Sequence record: OR352940.1
Source: Escherichia phage AV110
Reading direction: 5' to 3' (one strand)
Length of the DNA: 64,000 bases
The notes under the pieces were generated by a model. It made no database searches and was not told the DNA's origin. It was given only the letters and a program-made list of their open reading frames with translations. The position numbers were made by a program, and so were the translations under genes. Below, piece after piece: positions 15,884-54,756 of this stretch; the stretch's first letter is position 1; each line of letters starts with the position of its first letter.

Positions 15884-15913
15884 AATTTTTCTCTCTTTGT
15901 TTAAGTTGAATTC

Positions 15914-15943
15914 ATTATACTCCAACCATCCTTGGTTGTACAA
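15914..15943 (-). promoter_or_regulatory. early-type promoter (TTGTAC-18-TATAAT)
   Basis: Upstream of paralogue B; spacer AACCAAGGATGGTTGGAG shared with 16471-16500 and 58281-58309. Confidence 0.45.
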
Positions 15944-15945
15944 CA

Positions 15946-16440
15946 TTAATTTAGAATATTAACCACAGCACTACGTGGAACTACACTAAAATCACCTGCA
16001 TGAACAACGTTCAGAAGTTCAACACCGTCTTCAATCCACTGGTCAGTTACCCAGCCACTTACCGGTCCTGCGAACGGACGTCGAATTGAAACAGCTTTAC
16101 ACAACAAATCAGTAGGCTCAATAGGCTTAATCAGAGTACCGTACATACAAGCGATATCCATATCAATACAGATGTCTTTAACGGGTTCTACTTCTTCAAT
16201 CAACAGTTCAAAGTCGGTGCTTGGAAGGGCGGTAGTAGAAATTGTACCATATGAATTTTTAATTTCTAAGAATAACCAAGGGCCTTCAGCTTGTTTGATG
16301 AAGTTAACAATAGTAAAACTATTACCTTGAGTGGCACCTAAAATTTCACAAAACTTTTCATAAGCTCGCACTGAAGCACCGTACCAGTTGATTTGTTTTT
16401 CGTCTTTCAGGATGTAAGTAGCCGTAGTATTGATATTCAT
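15946..16440 (-). CDS. paralogous family protein, member C (164 aa)
   Basis: More divergent copy with same C-terminal motif (VTDQWIEDGVELLNVVHAGDFSVV); own early promoter; position of T4 dexA.1/dexA.2/motB. Confidence 0.55.
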   Translation of the reverse strand: MNINTTATYILKDEKQINWYGASVRAYEKFCEILGATQGNSFTIVNFIKQAEGPWLFLEIKNSYGTISTTALPSTDFELLIEEVEPVKDICIDMDIACMYGTLIKPIEPTDLLCKAVSIRRPFAGPVSGWVTDQWIEDGVELLNVVHAGDFSVVPRSAVVNILN

Positions 16441-23170: not shown

Positions 23171-23692
23171 TTAATAACCTCGGTCTTGACGAGCAAAGTT
23201 TTCAGCATTCTTCAGATAATACAGTTTAAAGATTTCTTCAGCAGAAAGACCCAGACCTTGGAACATGTTCAGAACGAAGTGCAGAATATCAATCATTTCG
23301 AATTTAATTTCGAGCTGGTCTTCAGGAGACAGTTCATCAATACGACGATTACGATATTCAGCATGTTGTGCTTTCCATGGCTTCCACACAGAGCTAGCGG
23401 CTTTTTCACCATTGCTCATACCACCAAGTGAAGTCAGCAGTTCACGGAATTCATCATCAATATAATCTTTCTGATTACGCAGCCAATCAACAACATCGCC
23501 TGCAGTGGCCAATTCATCAGGATGTTTGTTATGTTCAGGCTTGTCATTTGCCAGGCGAACCTGTAAAGATTTCTGCATATCAAGCATTACCTGCAGTGGG
23601 TCTTTATCTTCGTGAATCAGAGCATTAAAATAAGCTTCTTCCGCTTTATCAACACCAGAAATAAGTTGTGAACATTCGTTAAAGTGTGCCAT
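23171..23692 (-). CDS. 56: dCTP pyrophosphatase gp56 (MazG-like)
   Basis: 173 aa from MAHFNEC (ATG 23692, AGGA RBS); MazG-type helical NTP-PPase, size as T4 gp56; track start uses an upstream TTG. Confidence 0.85.
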   Translation of the reverse strand: MAHFNECSQLISGVDKAEEAYFNALIHEDKDPLQVMLDMQKSLQVRLANDKPEHNKHPDELATAGDVVDWLRNQKDYIDDEFRELLTSLGGMSNGEKAASSVWKPWKAQHAEYRNRRIDELSPEDQLEIKFEMIDILHFVLNMFQGLGLSAEEIFKLYYLKNAENFARQDRGY

Positions 23693-23780
23693 TATTTTTC
23701 CTTTCAATTCAGTATAAGAGAGTTAATTCTAACATTAATTTTATAAAGCGTAATAAATAATAGGTAACTAAGGAGATATT

Positions 23781-25722: not shown

Positions 25723-26382
25723 TTAACCTCGATTCATAAATGCATTAAATATTTGGTCATCAACAGAAATTTCTAATTCGACTTCAATTGCTTCAGCTTT
25801 TTCTTCAGGTGGTAATTCGTATCCACACACTACAATTTTTTCATCGATATCAAAATATACAGAAGCAATACGATTAATGTTATTTTCAGTTAAGTCCAAA
25901 TCAACATCAACATCTTTTTGGCCTACACTTAGAGGATAACTAATACGGGTTATTTTATTATCTTTAACAAAGAGTCCACCAACATACTCTGTACTACGTT
26001 TGAAGTTTACACGTTTCCGAATTGAAAGATATGATGCATCTTTACCGTGAGCTCGGCTCATAGGACATAATGAATAGCTAGAATAAGAGATGTCAAATCC
26101 TACACCTTCAATATGAGCCAACGTGTCATGATTAAACCAATTATAATCATATGCCAAATCCATTATATTGTAATATGTGAAAGGCACTGGATTAACATCA
26201 TATGTTGTACCTTTAAAATCTGCCCAGGCAACGATTTCGTTATCTTTAACAATTACAAAAATTACACCAATATGATATCCACGATTGTTTTCATCAGGCG
26301 TTATATTATAACATTGTGCATCAGGAAATTTACCGTATTTAAACGGTGGATTTTTGTGCATATAATAAATCATATTATTCAC
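25723..26382 (-). CDS. hypothetical protein in 61.2 position (219 aa)
   Basis: Position corresponds to T4 61.2, which I recall (not verified) as the anti-DarT factor adfA locus. Confidence 0.5.
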   Translation of the reverse strand: MNNMIYYMHKNPPFKYGKFPDAQCYNITPDENNRGYHIGVIFVIVKDNEIVAWADFKGTTYDVNPVPFTYYNIMDLAYDYNWFNHDTLAHIEGVGFDISYSSYSLCPMSRAHGKDASYLSIRKRVNFKRSTEYVGGLFVKDNKITRISYPLSVGQKDVDVDLDLTENNINRIASVYFDIDEKIVVCGYELPPEEKAEAIEVELEISVDDQIFNAFMNRG

Positions 26383-26731: not shown

Positions 26732-26980
26732 TTATTCTTTTTCGCGAATAATAATTACTTGTTGAGGCTGCTGAGCAGATTTCTTTTCGGCAACGATAGA
26801 CCAAATTAAAGTTCCAATCCAACCAACCATCGTCCAGTTAAAGAGTAAAGATACAAAGAAGATTGCTGTTGTGCTTTTTGTGCCACGAATAAGTGCGATT
26901 ACCCAAGGCAACATGTAAATGATGATTGAACCAATACCTGCGATTAAAACTGCTACTGAACTAGCTACGAATAATTCCAT
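26732..26980 (-). CDS. small inner-membrane protein, superinfection-immunity (Imm)-like
   Basis: 82 aa, two TM segments; pattern YMLPWVIALIRG...VGWIGTLIWS resembles the superinfection-immunity family; own promoter. Confidence 0.5.
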   Translation of the reverse strand: MELFVASSVAVLIAGIGSIIIYMLPWVIALIRGTKSTTAIFFVSLLFNWTMVGWIGTLIWSIVAEKKSAQQPQQVIIIREKE

Positions 26981-27008
26981 GTTAATTTCCTCTTGATTTG
27001 TTATGTTT

Positions 27009-27038
27009 ATAGTATCTTGTTTTAACTTTGGTGTAAAC
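27009..27038 (-). promoter_or_regulatory. early promoter (GTTTAC-18-TACTAT)
   Basis: Upstream of Imm-like membrane gene. Confidence 0.45.
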
Positions 27039-27041
27039 CAA

Positions 27042-27410
27042 TTAATTAAATTTGTTTAAACGTTCAATACACTGGACGTAGTTATTCGCGATTTGTTTCT
27101 GGGTAGGCTCTTTACCAGTTGTTTCAACATAGCGAATGAATGCGATTTCAGTAGCCTGTAGACAATGTTCTTTAACGCGTTGTTCTTTTGTCAATGCTAC
27201 AGTATCAGAATCACGATAACGTTGAGCATGAGCATCAGCTTGAATCATTCGATTACCTACAGTAACCGGGTCTTCCACTTCAACTTTAGGTTGCTCATAT
27301 TGTTTAACATTCGGATTGTAAATCAGTTGGCCGACGTTATTAGGAATAAAGCCATGGGCGCCACATCCGGTTAATCCAAATACCATTGCTAAAGCGATTA
27401 ATTTTTTCAT
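27042..27410 (-). CDS. lipoprotein (122 aa)
   Basis: Signal peptide with lipobox MVFGLTGC; own early promoter and GGAA RBS. Confidence 0.55.
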   Translation of the reverse strand: MKKLIALAMVFGLTGCGAHGFIPNNVGQLIYNPNVKQYEQPKVEVEDPVTVGNRMIQADAHAQRYRDSDTVALTKEQRVKEHCLQATEIAFIRYVETTGKEPTQKQIANNYVQCIERLNKFN

Positions 27411-29942: not shown

Positions 29943-30305
29943 TTAAAAGAATTTAAATTTTTTCTTGGTTCGTTCATTAAAAGCTTGTTGTACTTGCATT
30001 GTAACACATTTTTCAACATGTGGTGCAAGTTCTGCTTTTCTGTCCTGGTCAAGAACTGCAAAGTCCATTACGATTTTACCATCAACCCAGTCTAGTTTTG
30101 TAATATAGACTATATGATGGGAACCGTCTTCAAGTGTAATCAGAATCTCTTGAATGACATTTTCCATTGCTGAACGGACAATTTTAAGAGATTCATTAAA
30201 CACTCGTTCTTTGCGAATGTCTTCCCCTTCCGAAGAAGGGGATTCATCAACGATTTCTAGATTTAAATCATCGAGATTATTCATCGAAATCTTCCATTTC
30301 GTCAA
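29943..30305 (-). CDS. 40: gp40-position protein (head assembly chaperone in T4)
   Basis: Short acidic ORF between uvsX and 41 as in T4; alternative start at 30284; by synteny only. Confidence 0.45.
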   Translation of the reverse strand: MTKWKISMNNLDDLNLEIVDESPSSEGEDIRKERVFNESLKIVRSAMENVIQEILITLEDGSHHIVYITKLDWVDGKIVMDFAVLDQDRKAELAPHVEKCVTMQVQQAFNERTKKKFKFF

Positions 30306-31449
30306 GGTCGTTTTCTATATCTGCTGCAGATGGAGCATCAGAAGTTTTAACCGGAACTTTAGTTGTTGCTTTGCAATTAATAAGGTCGTTAACAGCGTCA
30401 TCAACTTCTTTAATAGAAGAGATAGCACCTAGTTTATATTTAGTTTCAATTGCATCTCGGAAAGGTTTGTGTTTAAACAACGGTCCCCAGAATTCTACAC
30501 AATCAGTAGCTTTAGCACGCCATGATTTTTCTTCACGAATCATTTCGCCTGTTTCTTCGTCAAGGAATTCACGAGCATACCACCCGGCTTTAGGCTTAAC
30601 TACAAAACCAATTTCAGTTGCCATTTCTAACAAGCCACTGAATGGGTCAATACCGCCATCAAAATTAACCGTGATCGGGAAAGTAGATTTCTCTTTAACT
30701 GTACGAGATTTTTCTGCTTTCAACGTGAAGTCATAACCGGTCAATTCAGTGCCATCTTTAACCTGACGTTTAGAGATAAAGAATACAGTGTTAGCCGAGT
30801 AAAGAATACCTGTACCGCCACCCATAATCTCTTTAGGATACAATCCGCCAATTTCCATTGCTGTATGGTTGATTGCAACACATGGAATATCTTTAATAGT
30901 CAGATAAGGAGTCACAATACGGAAAAGAGATTTAAGTGCCTTAGCACGAGACATATCACCTACAACTTTCTCGTTCAATGCATCTTCAGTTTCTTTCTTA
31001 GATGCAGTATTACCGATTGAATCGATAAAGATAATAACTTTATCACCCCGTTCAATCGCGGCAAGCTGATTAGTCATATCAACTTTAAGTTGTTCGACGG
31101 ATTGAATCGGAGTATGAACTACACGGTCTAAATCAACACCCATTGAACGAAAATAAGATTCTGAAGCACCGAATTCTGAGTCATAAAACAAACAGATTGC
31201 ATCTTTATATTTCTTCATATACGCTGCGACCATAGTTAGTCCAAACAACGTTTTAAAGTGTTTAGAAGGAGCAGCAAAAATAGTTAAGCCTGATTGCAAC
31301 CCTGCATTCAGTGCACCACCTAATGCGATATTCAACATCGGAATACGAGTAGGGACTTCATCACGATTATTAAACAGCTTAGACTTAGTCAAGTCTGCAG
31401 TCATTTTAGAAGTAGAAGCTTTAATCAGACGAGATTTTAAATCAGACAT
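30277..31449 (-). CDS. uvsX: UvsX recombinase (RecA-like)
   Basis: 390 aa; MSDLKSRLIKASTSK..., Walker A and acidic C-terminus DLDEMEDFDE matching T4 UvsX. Confidence 0.9.
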   Translation of the reverse strand: MSDLKSRLIKASTSKMTADLTKSKLFNNRDEVPTRIPMLNIALGGALNAGLQSGLTIFAAPSKHFKTLFGLTMVAAYMKKYKDAICLFYDSEFGASESYFRSMGVDLDRVVHTPIQSVEQLKVDMTNQLAAIERGDKVIIFIDSIGNTASKKETEDALNEKVVGDMSRAKALKSLFRIVTPYLTIKDIPCVAINHTAMEIGGLYPKEIMGGGTGILYSANTVFFISKRQVKDGTELTGYDFTLKAEKSRTVKEKSTFPITVNFDGGIDPFSGLLEMATEIGFVVKPKAGWYAREFLDEETGEMIREEKSWRAKATDCVEFWGPLFKHKPFRDAIETKYKLGAISSIKEVDDAVNDLINCKATTKVPVKTSDAPSAADIENDLDEMEDFDE

Positions 31450-31547: not shown

Positions 31548-32096
31548 TTAACGAGCCCATTTGATGATTTCTGTAATCAAACCATTACGTTCGCTTGCAT
31601 TAAATCCTATAACTTTGTTAGCACCATCATGATTAAGTAATTGATATGTTTGGATTTTGTTATGAATTGCAAACTCTTCAAAATGTGAAATGACTGTATT
31701 AAAACCGAATGAAGACAAAGTAATAAGGTCGTCTTCAAAACTTTCAGTCATTTCGTTACGTGTTAAAATAATTGTGAACACATCATGGTTTTGGCAAAGA
31801 CGAACATAATCCTGTTCATAAACGTCAAGAACCGAGTCAGCATCTTGTCGAATACGTCCATAAACCCAGTTACTAATATATCCACGGTCTAACAGATAAA
31901 TCTTAGTAGGGTCTAAATAATTCAACATCGTTTCGAAACAGCCAACTTCATTTCGAGACTTAACATCGAAACGCCCATCAACTGTTCGTTTAGGGAAATC
32001 AATCTTTACATATCTTTCACTAATTTCCATTATGTCATTAATGAAAGTTGTTTTACCAGCATTATCCGGGCCATCTACTAAAATAATTTTAGCCAT
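31548..32096 (-). CDS. P-loop kinase-like protein (182 aa)
   Basis: Walker A ILVDGPDNAGKTT at N-terminus, small-kinase size; no T4 counterpart at this position. Confidence 0.5.
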   Translation of the reverse strand: MAKIILVDGPDNAGKTTFINDIMEISERYVKIDFPKRTVDGRFDVKSRNEVGCFETMLNYLDPTKIYLLDRGYISNWVYGRIRQDADSVLDVYEQDYVRLCQNHDVFTIILTRNEMTESFEDDLITLSSFGFNTVISHFEEFAIHNKIQTYQLLNHDGANKVIGFNASERNGLITEIIKWAR

Positions 32097-32097
32097 T

Positions 32098-32997
32098 TTA
32101 TTCCTCGATTACGACATCTTCATATTTAGGTATATTATACGGCGAAGAAATTAAAGCATTAAAGTAGATGAACTCACCAAGACCTGGATGGAATACTTCT
32201 TCAGGATTTTCGAAATATTGAATTTTCGGACGCCCTTTAAGAATTTGATAGTACTCTGTTTTAGTTGGTTTAAAAATTCGAATCAGCGCTTCTTCAGGAT
32301 ACTTATTTCTGTCGAAGCTATTATTTGGATCGGTTATATAAAGCGGTTGGCCTAATTGAATTGCACATTCAACCACTTGTTCAAAACGATAGCACGGGTC
32401 ACTAATTCGAAATGGATGAAAAATACCATCTAGATAAATAGGAGCCAAATCACCTACAAGACGCTGCATGATGGAAGGACGTATAACTTTCTGCGTTACG
32501 ATAATCTTATTACCATCTGCACCTGCGTTAACCAGCACTTCTTTTTGACGTTCATTCAACACAGTAGTTTGAAGTGAACGATTAACCGACAACATATCAG
32601 TTTTTAAGAATTCATCAATATAAAAACGTGGTTTATTAGGGTCTGCAGTGATATTGAAATTGAATTCCACATCAAAAGCGCCGTCATATCCAGTGATATC
32701 TGTGATTAGAAAATCACAGTCATAATAAGCAATTAATGAATCAACCACAAATCCATTTTCAGACCAGAAATATTTACGAGTGTTATACGCGTTATCTTTA
32801 TACCATAATGGAACAAACTTAAATTCTGGAAAAAGACGTTCGCATTCTTTAATATCAGATGCATTACGTGGATATGTAATCACATCACCCGGATTAGCAC
32901 GGTGCAAATGAAGTTGGAAGTTGCCATCCTTAAGGATAGCATACTGTCCAGTTTCATAAGACCGCATACTCAAGATTGGTACGCGGAAAATAGCCAT
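32098..32997 (-). CDS. protein at beta-glucosyltransferase position (299 aa), possible glycosyltransferase
   Basis: Occupies the slot between 42 and uvsX where T4 has beta-gt (351 aa); no confident motif. Confidence 0.4.
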   Translation of the reverse strand: MAIFRVPILSMRSYETGQYAILKDGNFQLHLHRANPGDVITYPRNASDIKECERLFPEFKFVPLWYKDNAYNTRKYFWSENGFVVDSLIAYYDCDFLITDITGYDGAFDVEFNFNITADPNKPRFYIDEFLKTDMLSVNRSLQTTVLNERQKEVLVNAGADGNKIIVTQKVIRPSIMQRLVGDLAPIYLDGIFHPFRISDPCYRFEQVVECAIQLGQPLYITDPNNSFDRNKYPEEALIRIFKPTKTEYYQILKGRPKIQYFENPEEVFHPGLGEFIYFNALISSPYNIPKYEDVVIEE

Positions 32998-33713
32998 TAG
33001 TCAAGGAATCCTTTAACATAATCAAAATCACGTTCAAACACATGGGCACTTACCATGGTATGAGTATAATCACCAACTTCTACACCGCATTCGTTAGCGA
33101 TATAATGAAGTAATTTTCCTTGGAGATAAAAATCCAACTGCATAACAACAGCACAGTTCTGAGAACGCATATGACAGTGGGTATAAAGCTTACCATCACG
33201 AATATAATAAGTCACTGAGTCAGTACATGGATATTCAAGTGTTTCGTCTGAATCAAGCAAAGCCTGATCAGAACTTTCTAGAATTTGGAACACAACTCTT
33301 CGGGAGTTAGGCTTCTCTTTAAGTTCTTTTAGAAGAGCTGGTAATTGAGCCGCAATGCGAGGACCATAGAAAGTGTTGAAGTTCGCCGGCAAAACATCTG
33401 ATTTTGGTTTAGAAATAAATTTAGCGACATTAGGATATGTCTTAAACGCTTCTTCTGCGTTGGTACCACCAGAAATCATAAACTTCCAGAAGTCTTCGGC
33501 ATATTCATAAGAGATGCGGTTAATACGTGGGTCGGTCATTTTGAATGATGATGGAGTGTCAACAACTACTGTCATAGACCCAATTTCATTACAACGTCCA
33601 ATACGAGAATCAGTTACGAATTCCGGGTTTTCTAAAATTTCACGATTGACTGCTTTAAATGCGGTTTGAAAATCTGCGGCTTTGATATATTTCATTGTGT
33701 TATGTTTTCCCAT
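32997..33713 (-). CDS. 42: dCMP hydroxymethylase gp42 (thymidylate-synthase fold)
   Basis: 238 aa; TS-like core with catalytic Cys context (LEYPCTDSVTYY...HCHMRSQN); size/position as T4 gene 42. Confidence 0.65.
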   Translation of the reverse strand: MGKHNTMKYIKAADFQTAFKAVNREILENPEFVTDSRIGRCNEIGSMTVVVDTPSSFKMTDPRINRISYEYAEDFWKFMISGGTNAEEAFKTYPNVAKFISKPKSDVLPANFNTFYGPRIAAQLPALLKELKEKPNSRRVVFQILESSDQALLDSDETLEYPCTDSVTYYIRDGKLYTHCHMRSQNCAVVMQLDFYLQGKLLHYIANECGVEVGDYTHTMVSAHVFERDFDYVKGFLD

Positions 33714-33755
33714 GTTTACCTCAATACAATTTATTATATACTCAATTCGTAAAGC

Positions 33756-33995
33756 TTATTTGAATTTCTTGACAATGTTGACATAACGTAAAGCTTCAGC
33801 ATCGATACTTCCAAGAACACTATGAAGAAATGCATCAGCGTAGTATTCCAATTGAACAGGTTCTTTAATCACTTTAGCCGCTTTAGTTTCAAACAGGCCC
33901 ATCAGGGCCTTTTTAAGAATTTGTTCATTAGTGTTCAGATTCATAGTCAAAATCTCTTCATTAAGTTGGTGGTTAAAAGTTTTTCTAGAAATCAT
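33756..33995 (-). CDS. hypothetical protein (79 aa)
   Basis: ORF with ATGA overlap to upstream enzyme gene. Confidence 0.45.
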   Translation of the reverse strand: MISRKTFNHQLNEEILTMNLNTNEQILKKALMGLFETKAAKVIKEPVQLEYYADAFLHSVLGSIDAEALRYVNIVKKFK

Positions 33996-35152
33996 TCCGG
34001 GTACCTCAAAGCGTCATCAGAGTTAGTTATATCAATAATAGATATAGAGTTTTCTGCTAACCCGTTTTTAGATAATTGACGTTTATAATATCTTTCACAA
34101 TATGTACACGTCGTCCCGCAGATTTCATTAGCACAATCGAAATCTGGATGTCTGAACCACCTTTTTTCTAAAAAGCCATCTAACAAAGAGGTTTCAATAT
34201 TTACTGTATGTGAAAACTCAGTTTCGTTTTCAAGAGTGAAAATAGTCTCTAAAGGCTTCCACAGTTCTAACAAATTACCTTCAAACTTTTCAGAAGCGTA
34301 TGCTTCAAGAACTTTCAAAATGTAGTCTGTGCTACCTGTACGTCCTGAAACTTTGAATTGAGTGATACCAATATCATTATAAAGTTTCAAATCTTGAGGA
34401 CGAACAAAACGAGTTCTCAACCAGTTAAATGGGTCTGTATCACGAGCTTTAATACAGTGCTGCATAGGATATCCGTTTAAGGATTTAGCATCATCAGCTG
34501 TAACATCAGTACTATGGAAAATATAGCAAGAGTCACGATAGCTACAATGTGTTGTATACCCTTTACCAGCATTAGAACAGAACTCATTTACAAGAACTTC
34601 AAATATTATATTGTTCTTATTGCAAAACTCTGCTGCACGCTTCAGGAAAGAAACTGAACGGTTCTTATGAATTCCACAGCAGACCTTTTTGATATTATAT
34701 TGGTCATGCAAGTATTTGATTTGAGTTACAGCATCGACATGTAGAATTGTTGAAACTTCAATCTCAATGTCTTTATTGACTTCACGAACAATTTCCATAA
34801 CAACAGGGTTAGCGATAGTAATACGCCATACGCCTATTGACCAAAGATACTGAACATAATCCTGAATAGCTTTCTTCTTCCACTCAACTAGTTCTCTTTT
34901 TGAACCAGGATTTATCGTGTTGAGTGTATAGTTAAAGCAAATACCTAATTCGTTACAACGTTTAACGTAATCTTCTAACATCTTTTTGTCAACGTCAGGA
35001 AGCCTAAAATCAGGTCTGGCTGCTACAAAAGCCATTTCTCTTGTAGAGCCATATACTTCGTTTATCAAGCTATTAGGATAGGTTTTATTGAGCTCTACGA
35101 TTTTATCAAGAAGAGCTAAATCAAAATTTGTTCCGATTTTAAAAGTATTCAT
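33992..35152 (-). CDS. Cys-rich enzyme of unknown function (386 aa), possible Fe-S protein
   Basis: Several Cys clusters including C-x4-C-x3-C-x2-C near C-terminus (DCANEICGTTCTYCERY); embedded in the sugar-nucleotide cluster. Confidence 0.5.
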   Translation of the reverse strand: MNTFKIGTNFDLALLDKIVELNKTYPNSLINEVYGSTREMAFVAARPDFRLPDVDKKMLEDYVKRCNELGICFNYTLNTINPGSKRELVEWKKKAIQDYVQYLWSIGVWRITIANPVVMEIVREVNKDIEIEVSTILHVDAVTQIKYLHDQYNIKKVCCGIHKNRSVSFLKRAAEFCNKNNIIFEVLVNEFCSNAGKGYTTHCSYRDSCYIFHSTDVTADDAKSLNGYPMQHCIKARDTDPFNWLRTRFVRPQDLKLYNDIGITQFKVSGRTGSTDYILKVLEAYASEKFEGNLLELWKPLETIFTLENETEFSHTVNIETSLLDGFLEKRWFRHPDFDCANEICGTTCTYCERYYKRQLSKNGLAENSISIIDITNSDDALRYPE

Positions 35153-35211
35153 TTTTTTTGCATCTCACGTTAATTGATGCGATGGTTTTTTTGCAGGTCT
35201 TACTTAAATTA

Positions 35212-35613
35212 TTATAGATTCGGTTTATACGATTTAAATGTTTCGAATTCGCCTTTATTCATAAGAGCTTTGAATTCGTCAGGACGCATAGCTTTGTCGT
35301 CGATAATCCAATCATATACTGGTTTATGTGTTAGCAAATTATGGTACTTCAAGCCAATGTTTGCCAAGTTCTGAATCAGACTTGGGAGAATGTCAATTGC
35401 TATACGACCAGGACCTACTGACTTCATACCGCGAGCAGTGTAAAGCGTTATTGTATGCCCTGCATCATACAGAGCATTAATGGCAGACACCATTTCGACG
35501 TCCGGTTTGAAGTTCACATAATCACGATTGTTATTCCACTCTGTTATACAATCATCGACATCAAAACAAAGATTAAGCATGTTTTCTACACGGTGCATTA
35601 GATTCGTTCCCAT
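35212..35613 (-). CDS. HAD-superfamily phosphatase-like protein
   Basis: Motif I LCFDVDDCIT, motif II ITLYTAR, motif III K...DD; start may be Met-6 (TAATG-coupled at about 35598). Confidence 0.55.
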   Translation of the reverse strand: MGTNLMHRVENMLNLCFDVDDCITEWNNNRDYVNFKPDVEMVSAINALYDAGHTITLYTARGMKSVGPGRIAIDILPSLIQNLANIGLKYHNLLTHKPVYDWIIDDKAMRPDEFKALMNKGEFETFKSYKPNL

Positions 35614-37283
35614 TGATGAGTGATATCGCCACCGATTGGACGATAAGAAACACCAGTTTCTTTATCAGTTAGTACCCATTTACCAGGATTTTTTGTAATC
35701 AGAGTAGCCGTTACAGGTTCTGCTACGTCATAACTAATAGAGCCGTCCTGAAGTACACGGCCCATGTTACGTAATTGCTTAGTCAGAAGTTCCATACCTT
35801 TATAATATGCGGCTACCGCTTTAAGTGGATTATTCTTGAAATAACCACCTAATGCAATCCAGATAATTGCTACAGCCAAATGATGATATTCATTAAACGA
35901 ACTCAGCTTTCCATATTTGTAAACTAATGGATTGATGTTAATAGTCACATTACAAGTTGTTTCATCAATAGTAAACTGTCCCCAGGTCGGATTAGCGTTG
36001 AATTCATCATAACCTGAAACAGCGTAAAGCACTTTAGCTTCGTCGTACAATTTCGGCCCGTAAATCTTGGTTTCGCCAAAATATCCACGAGGGTCGATAA
36101 ACTTGACTTCGCCGTTATCAGTAATCATAGTATTACTGAAGTTCGGGTCACCATGAATAACAGAGTACTGTCCCTGAGAACGGTTATGATAACGAATAAG
36201 GTGTTCTAAAGCTTGTTTCAGCATTGGCTTCAGACGTCCAATCTTAGTGTAGTTCACATGTGTGATTTTACCAAATGAATCAATCAATGGTTGAATGCTT
36301 TCACAACGATCAATAACTTTCGTATAGAATTCTTTAGTGAAATCACGACGAACAGTTTCAGGACTTACAAAATAAGTGTCTGCGCTGAATTTCAGTGCAT
36401 CTAAAATTGCATCAATAATTTGTGGACGAGCAAGACTTGATTTTGATTTAATATATTCAAATGCCGGCTTACCTTTAATGCGTTCCATTTCAAAGTTATT
36501 TTCATTAACAGAAACTAACTGAGGAACTGAATCTGATTTCACTTTCAAATACCACGAAATCTCATCTTTCTGAAGAGCTCGACCCTGTTCGGTTAATGCG
36601 AATTTAGTTACAGTTTCTTCGCCAATTTCAACTGCATTAAAACTACGGTTCAGTTCACGAACTTCATGGGCCTTTTCAAGTTTAGGCATATCACCAAGGT
36701 CGATGATATTCATAAGCTCTGATTTATTGAATGCGCCGCTGTAAAGGAATTCTACGAAATCACGTCCTTTGCAGTATTCATGAATTTCCTCATCGGTAGA
36801 ACCCATATAGAATTCCCAGTCTTTGAACTGATAAATTCCTACAACATTACCGCCTGTTTCACCTACATTAGTGATATTTTCACCATCGAAATTATACCGA
36901 CATTCATCACCCTTAACATAGATTGCGTTAACATTCCAAGACCAAGAACCAAAATCGGGAATAATATCACACCAGTTAACAATTACATTATGGCCGTCTA
37001 AATCTTTGTGTAATTTAGCAAGAGCATAAGCAGAACCATACGCTTCATCAACTGTACGAATAGTCACATTGAACCCTTCTTGCTCACAATAAGCTCGAAC
37101 AGTTTCAGCAAATTTTGAATGAACTACTACAATAATTTCATCTGCGCCAAGGTCAGAATAAATTGTATACAAATTGCTCAGAATAGTGTCTTGCTTATAG
37201 TTAACAAGCACCTTAGGAATATGATGCGTTATTGGATACAAACGAGTTGCCAGTCCAGCACCAAGAATAACAGCTTTTTTCAT
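35598..37283 (-). CDS. bifunctional sugar-1-phosphate nucleotidyltransferase / APH-like sugar kinase
   Basis: 561 aa; N-terminus AVILGAGLATRLYPIT (RmlA/GlmU-type NTase signature); C-terminus VIHGDPNFSNTMI and FIDPRG (aminoglycoside/choline-kinase Brenner and DFG-like motifs). Confidence 0.7.
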   Translation of the reverse strand: MKKAVILGAGLATRLYPITHHIPKVLVNYKQDTILSNLYTIYSDLGADEIIVVVHSKFAETVRAYCEQEGFNVTIRTVDEAYGSAYALAKLHKDLDGHNVIVNWCDIIPDFGSWSWNVNAIYVKGDECRYNFDGENITNVGETGGNVVGIYQFKDWEFYMGSTDEEIHEYCKGRDFVEFLYSGAFNKSELMNIIDLGDMPKLEKAHEVRELNRSFNAVEIGEETVTKFALTEQGRALQKDEISWYLKVKSDSVPQLVSVNENNFEMERIKGKPAFEYIKSKSSLARPQIIDAILDALKFSADTYFVSPETVRRDFTKEFYTKVIDRCESIQPLIDSFGKITHVNYTKIGRLKPMLKQALEHLIRYHNRSQGQYSVIHGDPNFSNTMITDNGEVKFIDPRGYFGETKIYGPKLYDEAKVLYAVSGYDEFNANPTWGQFTIDETTCNVTININPLVYKYGKLSSFNEYHHLAVAIIWIALGGYFKNNPLKAVAAYYKGMELLTKQLRNMGRVLQDGSISYDVAEPVTATLITKNPGKWVLTDKETGVSYRPIGGDITHQWERI

Positions 37284-37324
37284 GTTGAAGTCCTCATTGG
37301 TAAGTAGGAGTATTGTACACTATT

Positions 37325-37468
37325 CTAGTTAAAGCATTCATACTTTGCCTGTAGACCAATCATAATCCATCCAATTACAAGTGTTGGAATCATTACCGGA
37401 GCCGTTAAGCTCCAGTAGATAGTCATGGCAAGCATCAATAGTAAAAGTCCTATTGTTATTGCTTTCAT
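37325..37468 (-). CDS. small membrane protein (47 aa)
   Basis: Hand-found ORF MKAITIGLLLLMLAMTIYWSL..., ATGA-coupled to upstream SIS gene; sits where T4 has imm/imm.1. Confidence 0.35.
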   Translation of the reverse strand: MKAITIGLLLLMLAMTIYWSLTAPVMIPTLVIGWIMIGLQAKYECFN

Positions 37469-38100
37469 TGTTCGCCTCGTAACATGGCACCTAGTGCACC
37501 ACCTGGATGGAACTTAAGGAAGTCATTAGAGGTAAATCCACGTTCAGACGAAAGGTTGATAGCGAACGTATCGATAAGCGCTAACAACAATGTAGTAGAC
37601 ATTGTCGGAGCTAAAGAGTTCTCGTCAACTTCTACCGCGATACCGGTACAGAACGTATAATCAAAAAGAGCTTCGTATTCTTGTGGAATGTCAGGGTTAC
37701 AATGTAACAGAATCTGTTTAACCTGAGGACGAATCATACGAAGATGTTTAGCAACACCTATCATTTCTTCAGTCTTACCAGAACGACTGATGTGAACTAA
37801 TACATCATTAGGTGCAATAAATCCTGCGTCACCATGAGAATAATGCCCAGTGTTCAAGTACATACTTGGGATACCGAGTGAAGCAAAAGTCTCGGAAGCT
37901 TTAGTTGCGATATTAGCGTTCTTACCAACACCTGTAATAATTACTCGGCTTTCATAATTACTAAGTCCCGGGCGTCGAAGAGTTTCTAGAATAGCATTAT
38001 AACGAGCAGGGTTTTGACTAATTACTTTAGCCATAGTGGCAAGAGATGAAGCTTGTTTTACGATTGCGTCAATAGCGATAGTGATTGGTGTAGTTTTCAT
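37465..38100 (-). CDS. SIS-domain sugar-phosphate isomerase, arabinose-5-phosphate isomerase (KdsD/GutQ)-like
   Basis: 211 aa; KdsD-type SIS motifs (TFASLGIPS, HGDAGF, ISRSGKT, LAPTMSTT, GFTSNDF..HPGGALG); lacks CBS domains. Confidence 0.7.
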   Translation of the reverse strand: MKTTPITIAIDAIVKQASSLATMAKVISQNPARYNAILETLRRPGLSNYESRVIITGVGKNANIATKASETFASLGIPSMYLNTGHYSHGDAGFIAPNDVLVHISRSGKTEEMIGVAKHLRMIRPQVKQILLHCNPDIPQEYEALFDYTFCTGIAVEVDENSLAPTMSTTLLLALIDTFAINLSSERGFTSNDFLKFHPGGALGAMLRGEQ

Positions 38101-38140: not shown

Positions 38141-40852
38141 TCAAAAATCAAACATATCGAACAGAGATGCTTTCTTCTCGTAATCGAGTTTAGCTGCTGA
38201 TGTGAATCCTTCAAGTGGTTTAATAAATGTCTTCTCAAGGAGAACAGTGTAGTCCATCCAATGAAGTACGTCGTCTTTAATTAAATCTGTGATTTCAGTA
38301 CCAGAAGGCCATGCGATACATTTATCACCGAATGGGTTTCCTTCACGTAAAGGCAGAACATATACTTTTTCACCTTCTACAACTTGTGGTGCATCAATAT
38401 TACCTTTGATAGCTCGGTTATATGTCAGAATTCCACGAATATGGAACGGGCATTTAGGACCCGGGAATCCACCTACGTCATATTTAGCAATGTTATTCGC
38501 AGAAGATACCGACGCGATGCTAATATAATTCAATTGACGGAATTCTTTTTCAAACTCTTTAAAATATTCTTGTAATGATTCTTCACCTTCTTGAAGCATA
38601 CGACGAATACATTCTTTAAGAGCTTTCTGTACTGCTTTAGGAGTCGAAGATTTCTGAGTCTCTAGACCCATGATTTTGAGTTTAGGCTCAGCGTAACGAG
38701 TGCCTTCCATATCCCACACGTTTAATGCATAACGTTTCTTACCAGTCCAGAATCCACCAATACCTTTAGAACCGAGCGGAGGGCCAGCAATAGCTTCTCG
38801 GTCCATGAACATTAAGTGTTGTTTATTGTTCATGTATTCACACATTTCACGGAAACCTCTATCAATAGCAGGTTCCATACGTTCACGAGCGAACTTATCT
38901 AAGAAGTCTACCCAATGGTTGGTATCACGGAATTTAGATTCACCAACCTTATCGATAATTTTATCGGCAGATACGTAAATAGAGTCTGTATCACCATATA
39001 GAACGAAAGCTTCACCTTCTGTACCACAAACTTCATTCAGATATTCATTAACTTTACGTTCAATCCACTGTAAAGCCATTTGTCCGAATGTTGTGATTGC
39101 AGTAGCATTACGCAAATCATAATAACGGAACCAAACGTTGCCAAGTGCACCATAAAGTGAGTTGATAAGCAATTTACGGTTAATTTGTGCGGTCATACCT
39201 GCAACTTCAGTACGTTGAGCTCTAAACAACATTTCATTAAGAGATTTAGCAGACAACTTTTTAATCTTTTCTTTAATCTCATCACTGAAGTCGAAACGAT
39301 AATCAACATCTAATGGTTCGTCAACAGAAAGATTAGGATTATGCAATGCCTCTTTAATTATTTCACCATTACGTTGAGCTGCAAGCATATAACCTTTATG
39401 TTCTTTACGTTGATTAAAGACCTTAGTGATTTCAGTTGGAACTACACCATCACGGTCTTTATAATACATCATGCCGTTAGGAGAGCAACTGTACACATCT
39501 GAAGGACGTTCAGCGATTGCGTTAATATAATCATGCAATGGAGCTACTTTAAACGTTCCTGCTATTGTTTCCGGGCTAATATTCACTTGGCGAATAATAC
39601 TTGGATACAGAGATGTAAGGTCGAAACTCATTACATATTTGTATCGATTTGGAATAGGTTCCTTAACAAAAGCGCCAGGATAAGGTTGAACCGGGTGAGA
39701 ACGACCTTGTGGAATCACCTTGTTTTGTTCTTTAAGGCTATTAAAAATAATAGCATCCCAAGTTTTAATTGGACTGAACACAGATTGAATCTGAATTTTA
39801 GCATAATAACCCATGTCCAAGCTCAAGTTGATGAACTGACGCTTAGAATCAATTTGCAATACACGATACACGTCGATAATGTTATAAGAAATATATCGTT
39901 GGTGATTGCTTTCACGAAGCTTAGAAATAGGGCCGTCATATTTCAGTTTACCAACGTTCAATTCAAATTCTGAAATGTAATCCAGAGAATACGACGGTTG
40001 ATTGGTAAAAGAGAATTTTTTGTAAAGGTCAATGTAATCAAGAACAGAGATACCGAACAATGTAATGATTTCACGAGAACCATACATGTTTTCGATAACT
40101 TTAACACGAGTTTTACGATGCGGCGATAAACGTTTCGCAGTAGATTCGCCAAAAATATTCTTGATTCGGTTATACACATATGGAATATCAAATGACTCAA
40201 CGTTCCATCCAGTCAAAATGACAGGAGTTTTCTGTTGCCAGAAGTTGAGATATTCCATCAACAATTCTTTTTCGTTATCGAACGGCATATAAATGATTTT
40301 ATCGATAATTTCAGATGGAACTTCATCACCGCCTTGTTCTTGAAGCTTAGCAGCGATTTCAATAGACCATTCTTCTACATTACCATATGGAGAATTCAAT
40401 AGATCAAATACGTAGAACCTGTCGTCAATTGAGTCATAATGGGTGATAGCATCAATCGGATGTTTTGCTTGTGACGGCTCAGGGAACCCGTCCGGAGATG
40501 TTACTTCGATGTCGAAGTTAGCCACACGAATTTTTGTATGGTCGTATTTGATTTCATAGTTATAAGTGTCAGACAAATACGCCAATTTGAAATCGTCCAT
40601 GCCAAGTGCTTCAAGTCCGATATCTTCCATGCGTTTAATCCATTGGGAGGCATCACGCATATTAGCGAACAACTTACGAGTACACGGCTTACCGTAGATA
40701 TCGAAATATTTCGTAGCCTGACTTTCCGGACAATGAGCAAACAGTGATGGTTTATATTCTACTTCACGAGTACGTTCACGGCCATTAGAATCGATGTAAC
40801 GTTCAAAAATTGAATCACCAATCTGTTCAACCGTTAAGTAAAATTCTTTCAT
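38141..40852 (-). CDS. 43: DNA polymerase gp43 (family B)
   Basis: 903 aa; exo motifs FDIEV, YNIIDV, pol motifs DLTSLYPSI, YGDTDS; N-terminus matches RB69 gp43 as recalled. Confidence 0.95.
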   Translation of the reverse strand: MKEFYLTVEQIGDSIFERYIDSNGRERTREVEYKPSLFAHCPESQATKYFDIYGKPCTRKLFANMRDASQWIKRMEDIGLEALGMDDFKLAYLSDTYNYEIKYDHTKIRVANFDIEVTSPDGFPEPSQAKHPIDAITHYDSIDDRFYVFDLLNSPYGNVEEWSIEIAAKLQEQGGDEVPSEIIDKIIYMPFDNEKELLMEYLNFWQQKTPVILTGWNVESFDIPYVYNRIKNIFGESTAKRLSPHRKTRVKVIENMYGSREIITLFGISVLDYIDLYKKFSFTNQPSYSLDYISEFELNVGKLKYDGPISKLRESNHQRYISYNIIDVYRVLQIDSKRQFINLSLDMGYYAKIQIQSVFSPIKTWDAIIFNSLKEQNKVIPQGRSHPVQPYPGAFVKEPIPNRYKYVMSFDLTSLYPSIIRQVNISPETIAGTFKVAPLHDYINAIAERPSDVYSCSPNGMMYYKDRDGVVPTEITKVFNQRKEHKGYMLAAQRNGEIIKEALHNPNLSVDEPLDVDYRFDFSDEIKEKIKKLSAKSLNEMLFRAQRTEVAGMTAQINRKLLINSLYGALGNVWFRYYDLRNATAITTFGQMALQWIERKVNEYLNEVCGTEGEAFVLYGDTDSIYVSADKIIDKVGESKFRDTNHWVDFLDKFARERMEPAIDRGFREMCEYMNNKQHLMFMDREAIAGPPLGSKGIGGFWTGKKRYALNVWDMEGTRYAEPKLKIMGLETQKSSTPKAVQKALKECIRRMLQEGEESLQEYFKEFEKEFRQLNYISIASVSSANNIAKYDVGGFPGPKCPFHIRGILTYNRAIKGNIDAPQVVEGEKVYVLPLREGNPFGDKCIAWPSGTEITDLIKDDVLHWMDYTVLLEKTFIKPLEGFTSAAKLDYEKKASLFDMFDF

Positions 40853-52471: not shown

Positions 52472-52942
52472 TTAATCATGTTTCCACACCCCATCGGTAT
52501 TTGACCAAAGTCGCTGGTTATCTGATCCTCGCCACAGTTTTTTGGTCGGAAGATTTTTCTCATACTTCCCATCAATAATAACATCAACATATTTAAGCAT
52601 TTCTAGTTGTTTAATATCTTCAAACTTATATCCTGTCCACAACCAAATGCTTTTATTTGGATAAAGATTTTTTACTGTTTGAACAATGCAATGAATAACA
52701 TCTCGGTTATCAGGATAGAGAGGGTCACCTCCGGTTATAGTCAATCCTTCTATATAATCATTATTCAAACATTCAATTAATTGTTCTAGTGTTTCGCCAG
52801 TGAATGGAATACCATTTCTAGCATTCCATGTTGATTTATTATAACACCCTTCACATTTATGCAAACAACCTGTAACGAAAAGAACGACCCTGCAACCAGG
52901 GCCATTCACAAAATCGCAAGGATAAAATCTATCATAATTCAT
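52472..52942 (-). CDS. nrdG: anaerobic ribonucleotide reductase activating protein NrdG (radical SAM)
   Basis: 156 aa; radical-SAM cysteine cluster CLHKCEGC; overlaps nrdD end as in T4. Confidence 0.85.
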   Translation of the reverse strand: MNYDRFYPCDFVNGPGCRVVLFVTGCLHKCEGCYNKSTWNARNGIPFTGETLEQLIECLNNDYIEGLTITGGDPLYPDNRDVIHCIVQTVKNLYPNKSIWLWTGYKFEDIKQLEMLKYVDVIIDGKYEKNLPTKKLWRGSDNQRLWSNTDGVWKHD

Positions 52943-54756
52943 TGGTGTTTAACCCTATGCATGATTTCTTTATTTTTACCGAGATTAAATCCGCGTTCGT
53001 TCGGATTTCCCAAATAACCACAAGTTCTTCTTATTGTGTTCATCTTTTTAGGATCAGTTTCTCCGCAAACTGAACAAACAAATCCATTTTCAGTAGGAGT
53101 CATTTCATGAGTACTTCCGCATGTAAAACATTTATCTACTGGCATATTAACACCAAAATAATCTAAATGTTGTGCAGCATAATCCCATACAGCCTCAAGT
53201 CCCTTTAAATTGTTTTTCATATCTGGAAGTTCAACATAAGAAATGTGACCGCCTGTCGCAATGAAATGATACGGCGCTTCACGAGAAATCTTTTCAAACG
53301 GAGTAATATTTTCTTCTACTGAAACATGGAAACTATTAGTGTACCAGCCTTTATCTGTAACATCTTTTACACTTCCATATTTTTCTGTGTCGAGTTTACA
53401 AAAGCGATAACAAAGGTTTTCAGCAGGAGTAGAATATAAACTAAAAGCAAATCCGGTTCTTTCAGTCCACTGTTTAAGATGAGCATTCATTTTAGTTAAA
53501 ATTTCTTGTCCAATATCACGACCGACAAGAATATTCAATTCGTGAATACCAATGTATCCCAAAGACACTGAACTTCTACCGTTTTTAAATAACTCAATTA
53601 TATCGTCATCAGGTTTAAGACGAACCCCAAATGCACCTTCTTGGTAAAGAATAGGAGCAACAGTCGCTTTAACTCCTTTTAAGGAACTAATTCTACACAT
53701 CAAAGCTTCAAAACACAGGTCCATTCGTTCGTTAAATAGCTCAACAAATTTCTGTTCATTGAACTGTGTTCCAATATAAGAATCTAACGCAATACGAGGA
53801 AGATTCAGTGTTACAACACCAAGATTATTACGTCCATCAAGAATTTCATTACCAGTCGAATCTTTCCATACGCTCAAGAAACTACGGCAACCCATCGGAG
53901 AAACAGGAACTGAAGAACCGGTAATAGCTTTATTATTCTTAACCGAAATAATGTCAGGATACATTCTTTTGCTTGCACATTCTAACGCAAGTTGTTTAAT
54001 ATCATAGTTCGGATCGTCTTTATAAAGATTAACACCTTCTTCAACGAACATAACAAGCTTAGGGAAAATAGGAGTTATTCCATCACGACCAAGACCTTTA
54101 ATGCGGTTTTTAAGAATTGCCTTCTGAATCATTCGTTCAGTCCAATCGGTTCCCGTACCAAATGTAATTGTTACAAAAGGAGTTTGTCCGTTTGAACTAA
54201 AGAGAGTATTTACTTCATATTCATAAGCTTGGAATGCGTCATAGACATCTTTTTCTGTTTTAGATTGAGCATAATTCAGAATGTCTGGTATTTGCCATTT
54301 TTCTGCATCTTCAACATGTTTAGCGTATGTACGTTTAACATAAGGAGAAAGAACTTTATCGACATTCGCAAATGTAGTTCCGCCATACTGATGTGAAGCA
54401 ACCTGTGCAGTAATTTGTGCCATAATTGCAGTAGCAACGCCAATAGATTTAGGCGTTTCAATTTGAGCATTGCCTAATTTAAATCCATTCTCAAGCATCC
54501 CCTTTAAATCGACTAAACAGCAATTGGTAAACGGAAGAGCAGGAGAATAATCAATATCATGCATGTGAATGATTCCGCTTTCATGCGCATTCATAATAAA
54601 AGACGGGACCATATTTTTGGCAATGTGCTTAGACACAATACCAGCCATAAGGTCCCGTTGAGTTGGAAAAACACGAGAATCTTTATTAGCATTCTCGTTT
54701 AAAAGGTCTTTATTAGTTTTATGAATTAATCCTTCAATTTCTTTTTCAATTTTCAT
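52939..54756 (-). CDS. nrdD: anaerobic ribonucleotide reductase NrdD (glycyl radical enzyme)
   Basis: 605 aa; C-terminal glycyl-radical motif RTCGYLG and Zn-ribbon CFTCGSTHE...CSVCG; uninterrupted (no intron). Confidence 0.9.
   Translation of the reverse strand: MKIEKEIEGLIHKTNKDLLNENANKDSRVFPTQRDLMAGIVSKHIAKNMVPSFIMNAHESGIIHMHDIDYSPALPFTNCCLVDLKGMLENGFKLGNAQIETPKSIGVATAIMAQITAQVASHQYGGTTFANVDKVLSPYVKRTYAKHVEDAEKWQIPDILNYAQSKTEKDVYDAFQAYEYEVNTLFSSNGQTPFVTITFGTGTDWTERMIQKAILKNRIKGLGRDGITPIFPKLVMFVEEGVNLYKDDPNYDIKQLALECASKRMYPDIISVKNNKAITGSSVPVSPMGCRSFLSVWKDSTGNEILDGRNNLGVVTLNLPRIALDSYIGTQFNEQKFVELFNERMDLCFEALMCRISSLKGVKATVAPILYQEGAFGVRLKPDDDIIELFKNGRSSVSLGYIGIHELNILVGRDIGQEILTKMNAHLKQWTERTGFAFSLYSTPAENLCYRFCKLDTEKYGSVKDVTDKGWYTNSFHVSVEENITPFEKISREAPYHFIATGGHISYVELPDMKNNLKGLEAVWDYAAQHLDYFGVNMPVDKCFTCGSTHEMTPTENGFVCSVCGETDPKKMNTIRRTCGYLGNPNERGFNLGKNKEIMHRVKHQ

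Follow-up and report, generated by a model that had tools for sequence, protein, structure and literature searches.

Arabinose was found in the DNA of phage RB69 by Thomas 2018, who reported it as arabinosyl-5-hydroxymethylcytosine (ara-hmC) and proposed the products of ORF055c and ORF53_52c for UDP-arabinose synthesis (PMC6024577). The base has since been corrected: nuclear magnetic resonance and mass spectrometry placed the arabinose of RB69 DNA in ether linkage to the C5 hydroxyl of 5-hydroxycytosine (5hoC; Lee 2026, PMC13326640), the sugar in phage NP DNA is ether-linked to the C5 hydroxyl as well, and the 2026 study of that phage describes the original hmC assignment as erroneous (PMC13390438), so that mono- or di-arabinosyl-5-hydroxy-dC is now demonstrated in the virions of both phages. 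In RB69, gp45-gp55 plus gp3 have been assigned to the pathway, and gp48 makes 5-hydroxy-dCMP (5hodCMP), incorporates 18O from O2 and binds a flavin (Lee 2026, PMC13326640). Here we analyse the matching genes in a 64,000-nucleotide stretch of Escherichia phage AV110 (record OR352940.1; hereafter the window), in which a block of nine genes at 31548-38100 is very probably an arabinosyl-5-hydroxycytosine (ara-5hoC) DNA hypermodification cluster of the RB69/HY126 type. The cluster as a system is already published (Thomas 2018; Mahler 2025; He 2026; Lee 2026); what is new is the reading of one of its members, a U32-family protein, as a possible oxygen-independent hydroxylase.

The block lies between uvsX (30277-31449) and gp43 (38141-40852) and all of its genes are on the minus strand (Table 1), confirming the continuous string described in the initial annotation, whose family calls (SIS, sugar nucleotidyltransferase, APH-like kinase, HAD and P-loop kinase) agree with the results of Pfam, PHROGs, NCBIfam and PDB searches. 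Stop and start codons overlap for most of the genes (ATGA, TAATG), indicating translational coupling, and the GC content of the block (0.34-0.41) is the same as that of its flanks. A scan for sigma-70 promoters and terminators found fewer sites in the block than in shuffled sequence and was uninformative; TATAAT-like elements are present in the intergenic gaps, from which no conclusion was drawn. The closest deposited relatives are Mosigvirus genomes, to which the block is 98.8% identical at the DNA level, and at least 80% of it is covered in 151 deposited phage records; the source phage is a Mosigvirus. Protein by protein, the block is 96-100% identical to its counterparts in Shigella phage JK45 and Escherichia phage HY126, and the RB69 gp45-gp55 plus gp3 genes and the HY126 Afh cluster share its gene order and the active-site signature of its thymidylate-synthase homolog. 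The window differs in that 46/47 and 52/53, each divided in two in the RB69 GenBank entry, are single intact open reading frames (ORFs); resequencing had already shown RB69 52/53 to be a single ORF (Thomas 2018, PMC6024577) and both splits have been attributed to sequencing errors (Lee 2026, PMC13326640).

Table 1. Predicted products of the block (ORF-list coordinates) and of two associated genes elsewhere in the window. Names in brackets give the RB69 equivalent, preceded where relevant by the HY126 name.
Product	Coordinates	Strand	Length (aa)	Basis or remark
Predicted second DNA arabinosyltransferase, GT2 (gp3/ORF003c)	10089-11189	-	366	PDB 9iqz/9ir0, phrog_8302
Probable dCTPase, gp56 type	23171-23707	-		C-terminal Pfam dUTPase_2 match, 28.7 bits
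Thymidylate-kinase-like P-loop nucleotide kinase (gp45)	31548-32096	-	182	phrog_761, PDB profile matches
GT-B-fold glycosyltransferase, GT1 (gp46:47)	32098-32997	-	299	AlphaFold2 model and Foldseek
5-Hydroxy-dCMP synthase, flavin- and O2-dependent thymidylate-synthase homolog (gp48)	32997-33713	-	238	97% identity to PDB 9iqc/9ir2/9iqu
79-aa ORF (ORF049c)	33756-33995	-	79	phrog_8601 only; ATGA overlap with U32 stop codon
U32-family protein, putative Fe-S hydroxylase (gp50)	33992-35152	-	386	Pfam, AlphaFold2, residue alignment
HAD-type phosphatase, arabinose-1,5-bisphosphate to arabinose-1-phosphate (AfhF/gp51)	35212-35598 (listed as 35212-35613)	-	128 from the probable true start at 35598; 133 from the first ATG	PDB 9iqw identity
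Bifunctional protein: N-terminal sugar-1-phosphate uridylyltransferase, C-terminal protein-kinase/APH-like arabinose-5-phosphate 1-kinase (AfhE/gp52:53)	35598-37283	-	561	Profile matches
Hydrophobic ORF (ORF054c)	37325-37468	-	47	Added here; ATGA overlap with isomerase stop codon
Single-domain SIS arabinose-5-phosphate isomerase, ribulose-5-phosphate to arabinose-5-phosphate (gp55)	37465-38100	-	211	NCBIfam and PDB matches

The gene that defines the chemistry of the base is the thymidylate-synthase (TS) homolog. The protein matches the Thymidylat_synt profile (E 2.4e-15), and in alignment with E. coli ThyA it places N186, D194 and E160 at positions D169, N177 and L143, with C163 as the catalytic Cys, which is the full 5hodCMP-synthase signature (D169N, N177D, L143E and the catalytic Cys). 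T4 gp42, to which it is only 25% identical, keeps Asp at the ThyA D169 position. By analogy with gp48, the TS homolog would hydroxylate dCMP at C5 with a flavin and O2, and a phage dNMP kinase would then convert 5hodCMP to the diphosphate, on the way to the triphosphate and its use by the DNA polymerase. In published work, 5hodCMP is phosphorylated to the diphosphate by a phage T4-type dNMP kinase, and triphosphate formation and polymerase use of the 5hodC nucleotide form the assumed model (PMC13326640). The probable dCTPase, a weak assignment made after RB69p028 (PMC13326640), would supply dCMP and exclude dCTP.

The three enzymes expected of the sugar-donor route, an arabinose-5-phosphate (Ara5P) isomerase, a kinase/uridylyltransferase and a HAD phosphatase, are encoded together in the block. 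The SIS protein scores 39 bits with Pfam SIS and 110.7, 105 and 79 bits with the NCBIfam KpsF/GutQ, KdsD and GutQ profiles, and in the PDB it matches 3etn (E 1e-24) as well as 5uqi and 2xhz. The initial annotation called it KdsD-type; the SIS family and the match to Ara5P-isomerase profiles stand, but the 211-aa protein has no tandem CBS domains and misses the KdsD equivalog cut-off of 505, and on sequence grounds it is probably an Ara5P isomerase like the single-domain enzyme 3etn, without the full-length KdsD architecture. The 561-aa protein, as had been noted, fuses a nucleotidyltransferase to an APH-like kinase: Pfam detects NTP_transferase at residues 3-99 (39 bits) and weak Fructosamin_kin, EcKL, APH and RIO1 matches at residues 308-409, and there are further matches to archaeal GlmU-type and UDPGP NCBIfam profiles and to PDB 1jyk. 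It is 96% identical to its HY126 counterpart and 43-73% identical across genera; we refer to it and its homologs below as NT-kinases. The HAD protein, whose TAATG start overlaps the stop codon of the upstream 561-aa gene, is 100% identical to PDB 9iqw over residues 6-133 and is related to PDB 1xpj (E 5e-10) and to the TIGR01689 capsule-biosynthesis phosphatases (49 bits).

From these assignments, the SIS isomerase would convert ribulose 5-phosphate to Ara5P, the kinase domain of the 561-aa protein would yield arabinose-1,5-bisphosphate, the HAD phosphatase would then strip the 5-phosphate to leave arabinose 1-phosphate, and the N-terminal nucleotidyltransferase domain would make UDP-arabinofuranose (UDP-Araf). 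A self-contained sugar-nucleotide pathway with arabinose as the sugar, feeding a DNA glycosyltransferase, is thus supported as originally suggested. The same four-step logic operates in the ADP-heptose pathway (GmhA, HldE, GmhB), with its SIS isomerase, anomeric kinase, HAD phosphatase and nucleotidyltransferase. In both, a HAD enzyme removes the distal phosphate and a single fusion protein combines kinase and transferase; here, the kinase has a protein-kinase/APH-like fold in place of a ribokinase-like one, the sugar is a pentose and UDP, not ADP, is the carrier. The clusters of Klebsiella phage F48 (locus L006, 3327-8994) and Shewanella phage Thanatos-2 (L005, 793-8391) have no Ara5P isomerase homolog; these phages presumably rely on host KdsD/GutQ or on another pentose, and Thanatos DNA has been reported to carry deoxypentose.

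Sequence searches of the PDB gave no matches for either the 299-aa protein or the U32 protein, and predicted structures were therefore used for both. The 299-aa protein, which also lacks Pfam and NCBIfam matches and shows no similarity to T4 beta-glucosyltransferase (b-gt), gave an AlphaFold2 model with a mean predicted local distance difference test (pLDDT) score of 94.9 and a GT-B fold, for which Foldseek returned the PDB entries of MshA (3c4q, template modelling (TM) score 0.61), 5ze7 (0.61), 6kih, UDP-GlcNAc 2-epimerases, 9ir0 and sucrose-phosphate synthase. A second glycosyltransferase (GT2) is encoded outside the block, between rIIA and the topoisomerase gene, and matches PDB 9iqz/9ir0 ('phage HY126 glycosyltransferase with UDP') with 828 bits, so that the window has both the GT-B protein (GT1) beside the TS homolog and the second transferase at its expected place. 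On the predicted structure, the 299-aa protein is the presumed first arabinosyltransferase on 5hoC and would place the first arabinose on the C5 hydroxyl; GT2 would add a second. The 182-aa kinase was correctly described from the outset as a P-loop kinase: it matches phrog_761 'thymidylate kinase' (E 5.7e-45), a profile of 12 cluster kinases matches PDB thymidylate kinases and YorR (E 7e-9 to 6e-7), and the P-loop GxDxxGK and the DR(Y) motif, invariant in the cluster kinases, place it in the Tmk family, although it scores 16 bits where the NCBIfam dTMP-kinase equivalog requires 83. The Tmk-like kinase stays beside GT1 and TS in JS98, Lazarus, TG1 and Thanatos.

The matches of the TS, HAD and GT2 proteins to the HY126-series PDB entries (9iqc, 9iqw and 9ir0), the TS signature and the protein identity to HY126 and JK45 together carry the assignment of the block to an ara-5hoC cluster. 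The comparison with T4 in the initial annotation also holds. T4 carries uvsX-segA-b-gt-42-imm-imm.1-43 at this slot, and no match to its alpha-glucosyltransferase (a-gt) or b-gt was found within the 64-kb window (best E > 1). The two systems share the slot between uvsX and gene 43 and the use of a TS homolog to modify a dNMP, with glycosylation of the DNA to follow. They differ in that hydroxylation with flavin and O2 here replaces folate-dependent hydroxymethylation, and in that the sugar is a pentofuranose made by the phage itself and attached by enzymes with no homology to a-gt or b-gt. Homologs of imm and imm.1 (64% and 34% identical to those of T4) are found at 26735-27404 on the minus strand, upstream of gene 41; in JS98, imm is still beside gene 43.

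The member of the block that the initial annotation left as a Cys-rich unknown enzyme is indeed Cys-rich, but its family is recognisable: Pfam matches it to Peptidase_U32 with 42.2 bits against a gathering cut-off of 22.4, and its AlphaFold2 model (pLDDT 90.8) has the U32 protein 5d88 as its best structural match in the PDB. The characterised Fe-S members of this family, RlhA, TrhP (5-hydroxyuridine in tRNA) and UbiU/UbiV, are required for O2-independent, prephenate-dependent hydroxylation (PMC5727448, PMC6599085, PMC10990095); RlhA makes 5-hydroxycytidine in 23S rRNA and requires prephenate and Fe-S clusters (PMC5727448), and in the UbiU/V-dependent anaerobic pathway prephenate is the oxygen donor (PMC10990095). 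E185, C203, C209 and C233 of the window protein align with E161, C169, C176 and C192 of RlhA, and the three Cys also align with C169, C176 and C193 of UbiU; two of these Cys positions have been shown to be essential in RlhA and all three are 4Fe-4S ligands in UbiU. The window protein shares with the cellular enzymes the U32 domain and, in this alignment, the conserved Glu and three of the four Cys, and RlhA performs the very cytosine C5 hydroxylation that is needed here. TrhP and UbiU/V also have O2-dependent counterparts that yield the same product (TrhO, UbiI/H/F), as the phage protein would have in the TS homolog, and the phage proteins are linked to prephenate supply by genomic association in relatives (see below). 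The differences are that the phage protein is only 18-22% identical to the E. coli U32 proteins, lacks the C-terminal domains of RlhA and would presumably act on a DNA precursor or DNA instead of RNA or a quinone; moreover, the phage family has seven other invariant Cys, some of them in a C340-x4-C-x3-C-x2-C352 motif of its own near the C-terminus. Across genera, no other protein of the cluster is as well conserved (79-87% identity, versus 70-80% for gp43), and the 28 nucleotide differences from HY126 change a single amino acid.

U32 genes were found in 221 phage records, all of them from arabinose-cluster phages and none from T4-like hmC phages. A type II chorismate mutase gene (Pfam CM_2, 33-45 bits against a cut-off of 27) overlaps the U32 stop codon by 4 nt in phages of Enterobacter (Entb_45), Klebsiella (F48), Serratia (CBH8) and Shewanella (Thanatos-2); in Yersinia phage TG1 it lies one gene further away (detected with tblastn and a chorismate mutase profile built here), and in Thanatos the U32-chorismate mutase pair has moved jointly to another position in the cluster. 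Chorismate mutases of this kind occur in 56 phage records. No Acinetobacter phage is listed among the 221 U32-positive records, as against 57 Acinetobacter records with an NT-kinase, and in the Acinetobacter phages the HAD gene is followed directly by the TS homolog. With NrdD taken as a marker of anaerobic life, Acinetobacter is also absent from the ten most frequent host names of 2913 NrdD-positive phage records, a weak hint.

A scan of IMG/VR returned 47 U32 loci, 15 from Straboviridae and 32 from other contigs, many of them 120-295 kb long, of which 31 were examined, the last being a terminal fragment. The TS homolog is present in all 15 Straboviridae loci. On the other 32 contigs the U32 protein is 40-55% identical to that of the window, and the 31 operons examined contain NT-kinase (16), SIS (9) and GT1-like (13) genes, together with Tmk-like kinases and HAD phosphatases. 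In 11 of the 31, U32 has as its neighbour a chorismate mutase, a DAHP synthase or a fusion of the two; examples are L047 (DAHP_synth_1, 125 bits, and CM_2, 65 bits), L033 (DAHP synthase, 143 bits) and L050 and L055, in which CM_2 follows U32 directly (55 and 54 bits). No hydroxylase-type TS homolog lay within 8 kb of U32 in any of the 31, the single TS gene found (L035) having ordinary dUMP-type residues, and none of the 32 contigs was among the 46 loci obtained from a collection-wide scan for 5hodCMP synthases with two clade-specific peptide patterns. The enterobacterial T4-like phages therefore carry both enzymes, the phages of a strict aerobe the TS homolog only and many uncultivated phages U32 only; this three-way pattern, together with the association of U32 with enzymes that make prephenate, is what would be expected if U32 hydroxylated the same position as an alternative enzyme that does without O2.

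We tentatively propose, with somewhat less than even confidence, that the U32 protein hydroxylates pyrimidines at C5 in a prephenate-dependent reaction that needs no O2. It would then be the first member of its family directed at DNA, and would give access without oxygen to 5-hydroxypyrimidine nucleotides or to 5hoC in DNA. It would supply the C5 hydroxyl when O2 is lacking, as TrhP backs TrhO and UbiU/V back UbiI/H/F, and the window lineage, having no chorismate mutase of its own, would draw on host PheA/TyrA for prephenate. The window encodes the anaerobic ribonucleotide reductase NrdD (52939-55226, minus strand, 572 bits), followed by endonuclease VII.

Alternative accounts were considered both for the published part of the pathway and for the U32 protein. 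The initial annotation took 'gene 42' to be a dCMP hydroxymethylase producing hmC, with Ara5P dephosphorylated to free arabinose, then converted to arabinose 1-phosphate, activated and transferred to hmC. The domain content of the block is compatible with this, and ara-hmC had indeed been reported for RB69, although the base named in that report is the one since corrected. We consider the model almost certainly wrong: the enzyme has Asn in place of the Asp that a hydroxymethylase keeps at ThyA-169, its N186/D194/E160 signature and its 97% identity to the solved HY126-series enzyme (the 9iqc series) oppose hmC as the acceptor, and in RB69 and NP the sugar is bound to a C5 hydroxyl. The acceptor base predicted from sequence for this isolate is 5hoC, and a T4-type glucosyl-hmC system would combine Asp at ThyA-169 with a-gt or b-gt. 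The step order also differs from that published for HY126, which, as far as it is relayed from He 2026 in PMC13326640, runs from Ara5P through Ara-1,5-bisphosphate and Ara-1-P to UDP-Araf: the AfhE kinase domain phosphorylates Ara5P to the bisphosphate, with UDP-Araf synthesized later, AfhF removes its 5-phosphate, and free arabinose is not an intermediate in the route as described there. The view in the initial annotation that the donor pathway still awaited biochemical proof has thereby been overtaken. The assignment of the 299-aa protein is less secure. Lee 2026 (PMC13326640) saw no activity of single glycosyltransferases on 5hoC DNA and could not tell whether the mononucleotide or DNA receives the first sugar; the Thanatos homolog TH1_063 has been reported to form UDP-xylose from UTP and xylose 1-phosphate in vitro. 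Both observations weigh against a role in the first transfer and, with the constant presence of a dedicated Tmk-like kinase next to the 299-aa gene, would fit a UDP-pentose-forming enzyme, with another enzyme attaching the first sugar, possibly to a nucleotide that the Tmk-like kinase then phosphorylates. We regard this as rather unlikely, since the protein has the GT-B fold of MshA and sucrose-phosphate synthase, the 561-aa protein already holds a bona fide nucleotidyltransferase domain, and Thanatos, which mono-arabinosylates, has this glycosyltransferase alone (PMC13326640).

The proposal for U32 faces several difficulties of its own. Only three of the four 4Fe-4S Cys ligands of UbiU have counterparts in the alignment, in which none was found for C232; no chorismate mutase was found anywhere in the 64-kb window; E. 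coli Dhakaviruses such as JS98 do without U32; and a divergent TS may lie elsewhere on the large uncultivated contigs, of which 8 kb on each side of U32 was covered, the collection-wide scan having used the two clade-specific patterns. A literature search found no paper in which phage DNA modification is connected with U32 or with chorismate mutase, but He 2026 and Mahler 2025 were outside its coverage and may already have tested or refuted the idea; the words U32, chorismate and prephenate do not occur in the text of Lee 2026 (PMC13326640). Table 1 of that paper labels RB69 gp50 a 'sugar or heterocycle reductase', and a sugar- or cofactor-side enzyme of this sort, or a genuine collagenase-type peptidase, is the principal competitor, which we judge unlikely yet well worth keeping in mind: U32 accompanies NT-kinase, SIS and GT1 genes more constantly than it does any base-modifying enzyme, and hydroxylase activity has not yet been reconstituted in vitro for any U32 protein (PMC10990095). 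Neither a reductase nor a peptidase, however, explains the recurrent linkage to chorismate mutase and DAHP synthase; the functions so far assigned to U32 proteins are all hydroxylations of aromatic or pyrimidine carbons, and DLP3 and JS98 have the full sugar pathway without U32. RNAs are the only characterised nucleic-acid substrates of the family (PMC10990095, PMC5727448), and the phage protein might instead hydroxylate host or phage RNA (tRNA U34 or rRNA C2501, as TrhP and RlhA do) to tune translation, its location in the cluster being due to chance. This is decidedly improbable, given that the C-terminal domains of RlhA are missing, that in three or more phage backgrounds unrelated to one another U32 is part of operons for DNA modification or replication, and that all 221 matches fall in arabinose-cluster phages, with none in T4-like hmC phages.

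On further contigs, three settings of U32 depart from that of the window. In L010 (1-11105) and L013 (335-10248), which are large contigs of uncultivated phages, a 55%-identical U32 stands amid genes for MazG/dUTPase-like and radical-SAM/SPASM proteins, a 400-aa protein and a thymidylate kinase, along with a uracil-DNA glycosylase fused or adjacent to DNA polymerase III alpha, a dCMP deaminase and a single-stranded DNA-binding protein; there are no sugar genes, one of the contigs is 466 kb long, and the block may serve a different, unglycosylated base modification. In L011 (8001-15428), two U32 genes flank an NT5C 5'-nucleotidase, a nicotinamide mononucleotide transporter, a deoxynucleoside kinase, a radical-SAM/SPASM gene and a nucleoside deoxyribosyltransferase-like gene, and a dockerin/GH43 gene found there too is a hint of an anaerobic host that degrades cellulose. 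L053 (216-13817) is a distant T4-like contig (gp43, UvsX and gp41 homologs) with a GT1-SIS-NT-kinase-U32 row but without the TS homolog or the Tmk-like kinase, a kinase that does recur in other U32-only operons; a nearby histidine-phosphatase-family gene may replace the HAD enzyme.

Two small ORFs complete the block. The 79-aa ORF is intact in the window, but HY126 and several further Mosigviruses have frameshifted or truncated versions (L008, 5501-5623). It differs from that of JK45 at 5 nt, giving 4 amino acid differences, while the adjoining U32 gene is almost invariant; the mostly non-synonymous change and the frameshifts suggest that selection is relaxed, and from its sequence the ORF looks dispensable. 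It was also considered as a degenerate chorismate mutase and rejected (BLASTP E 6.8, no CM_2 match, and an hhalign probability of 0.1% against phage chorismate mutases), TG1 and PM2 moreover carrying both genes, side by side in TG1. The 47-aa ORF, which starts MKAITIGLLLLMLAMTIYWSL, is very hydrophobic and would be a small membrane protein within a cytoplasmic pathway; JK45, HY126, CBH8 and TG1 have it annotated in the corresponding place, and a similar ORF is found elsewhere in the JS98 cluster. Outside the block, the 156-aa ORF at 52472-52942 is likely NrdG, an AdfA (anti-DarT factor A) gene lies near the modification cluster at 25723-26382 on the minus strand (full-length Pfam match, 405 bits), adding an anti-defence function to this part of the genome, and two adjoining motB-family genes (128 and 36 bits) at 15428-16440, also on the minus strand, appear to be a tandem duplication.

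The ara-5hoC cluster explains why RB69 is genetically isolated from T4 and how it withstands restriction and CRISPR systems. It also poses a problem: these phages infect bacteria of the gut, break down dCTP and encode an anaerobic ribonucleotide reductase, but the hydroxylase described so far depends on O2. If the proposed function of the U32 protein is correct, an anaerobic hydroxylase would resolve how phages with fully substituted cytosine replicate without oxygen in anoxic habitats, and the U32 family would gain a tractable nucleotide substrate for in vitro work. U32 would then also be the one hydroxylase serving glycosyl-hydroxypyrimidine pathways in many uncultivated phages, which are often very large and bring their own chorismate mutase or DAHP synthase, and it would flag widespread, uncharted DNA hypermodification operons among them.

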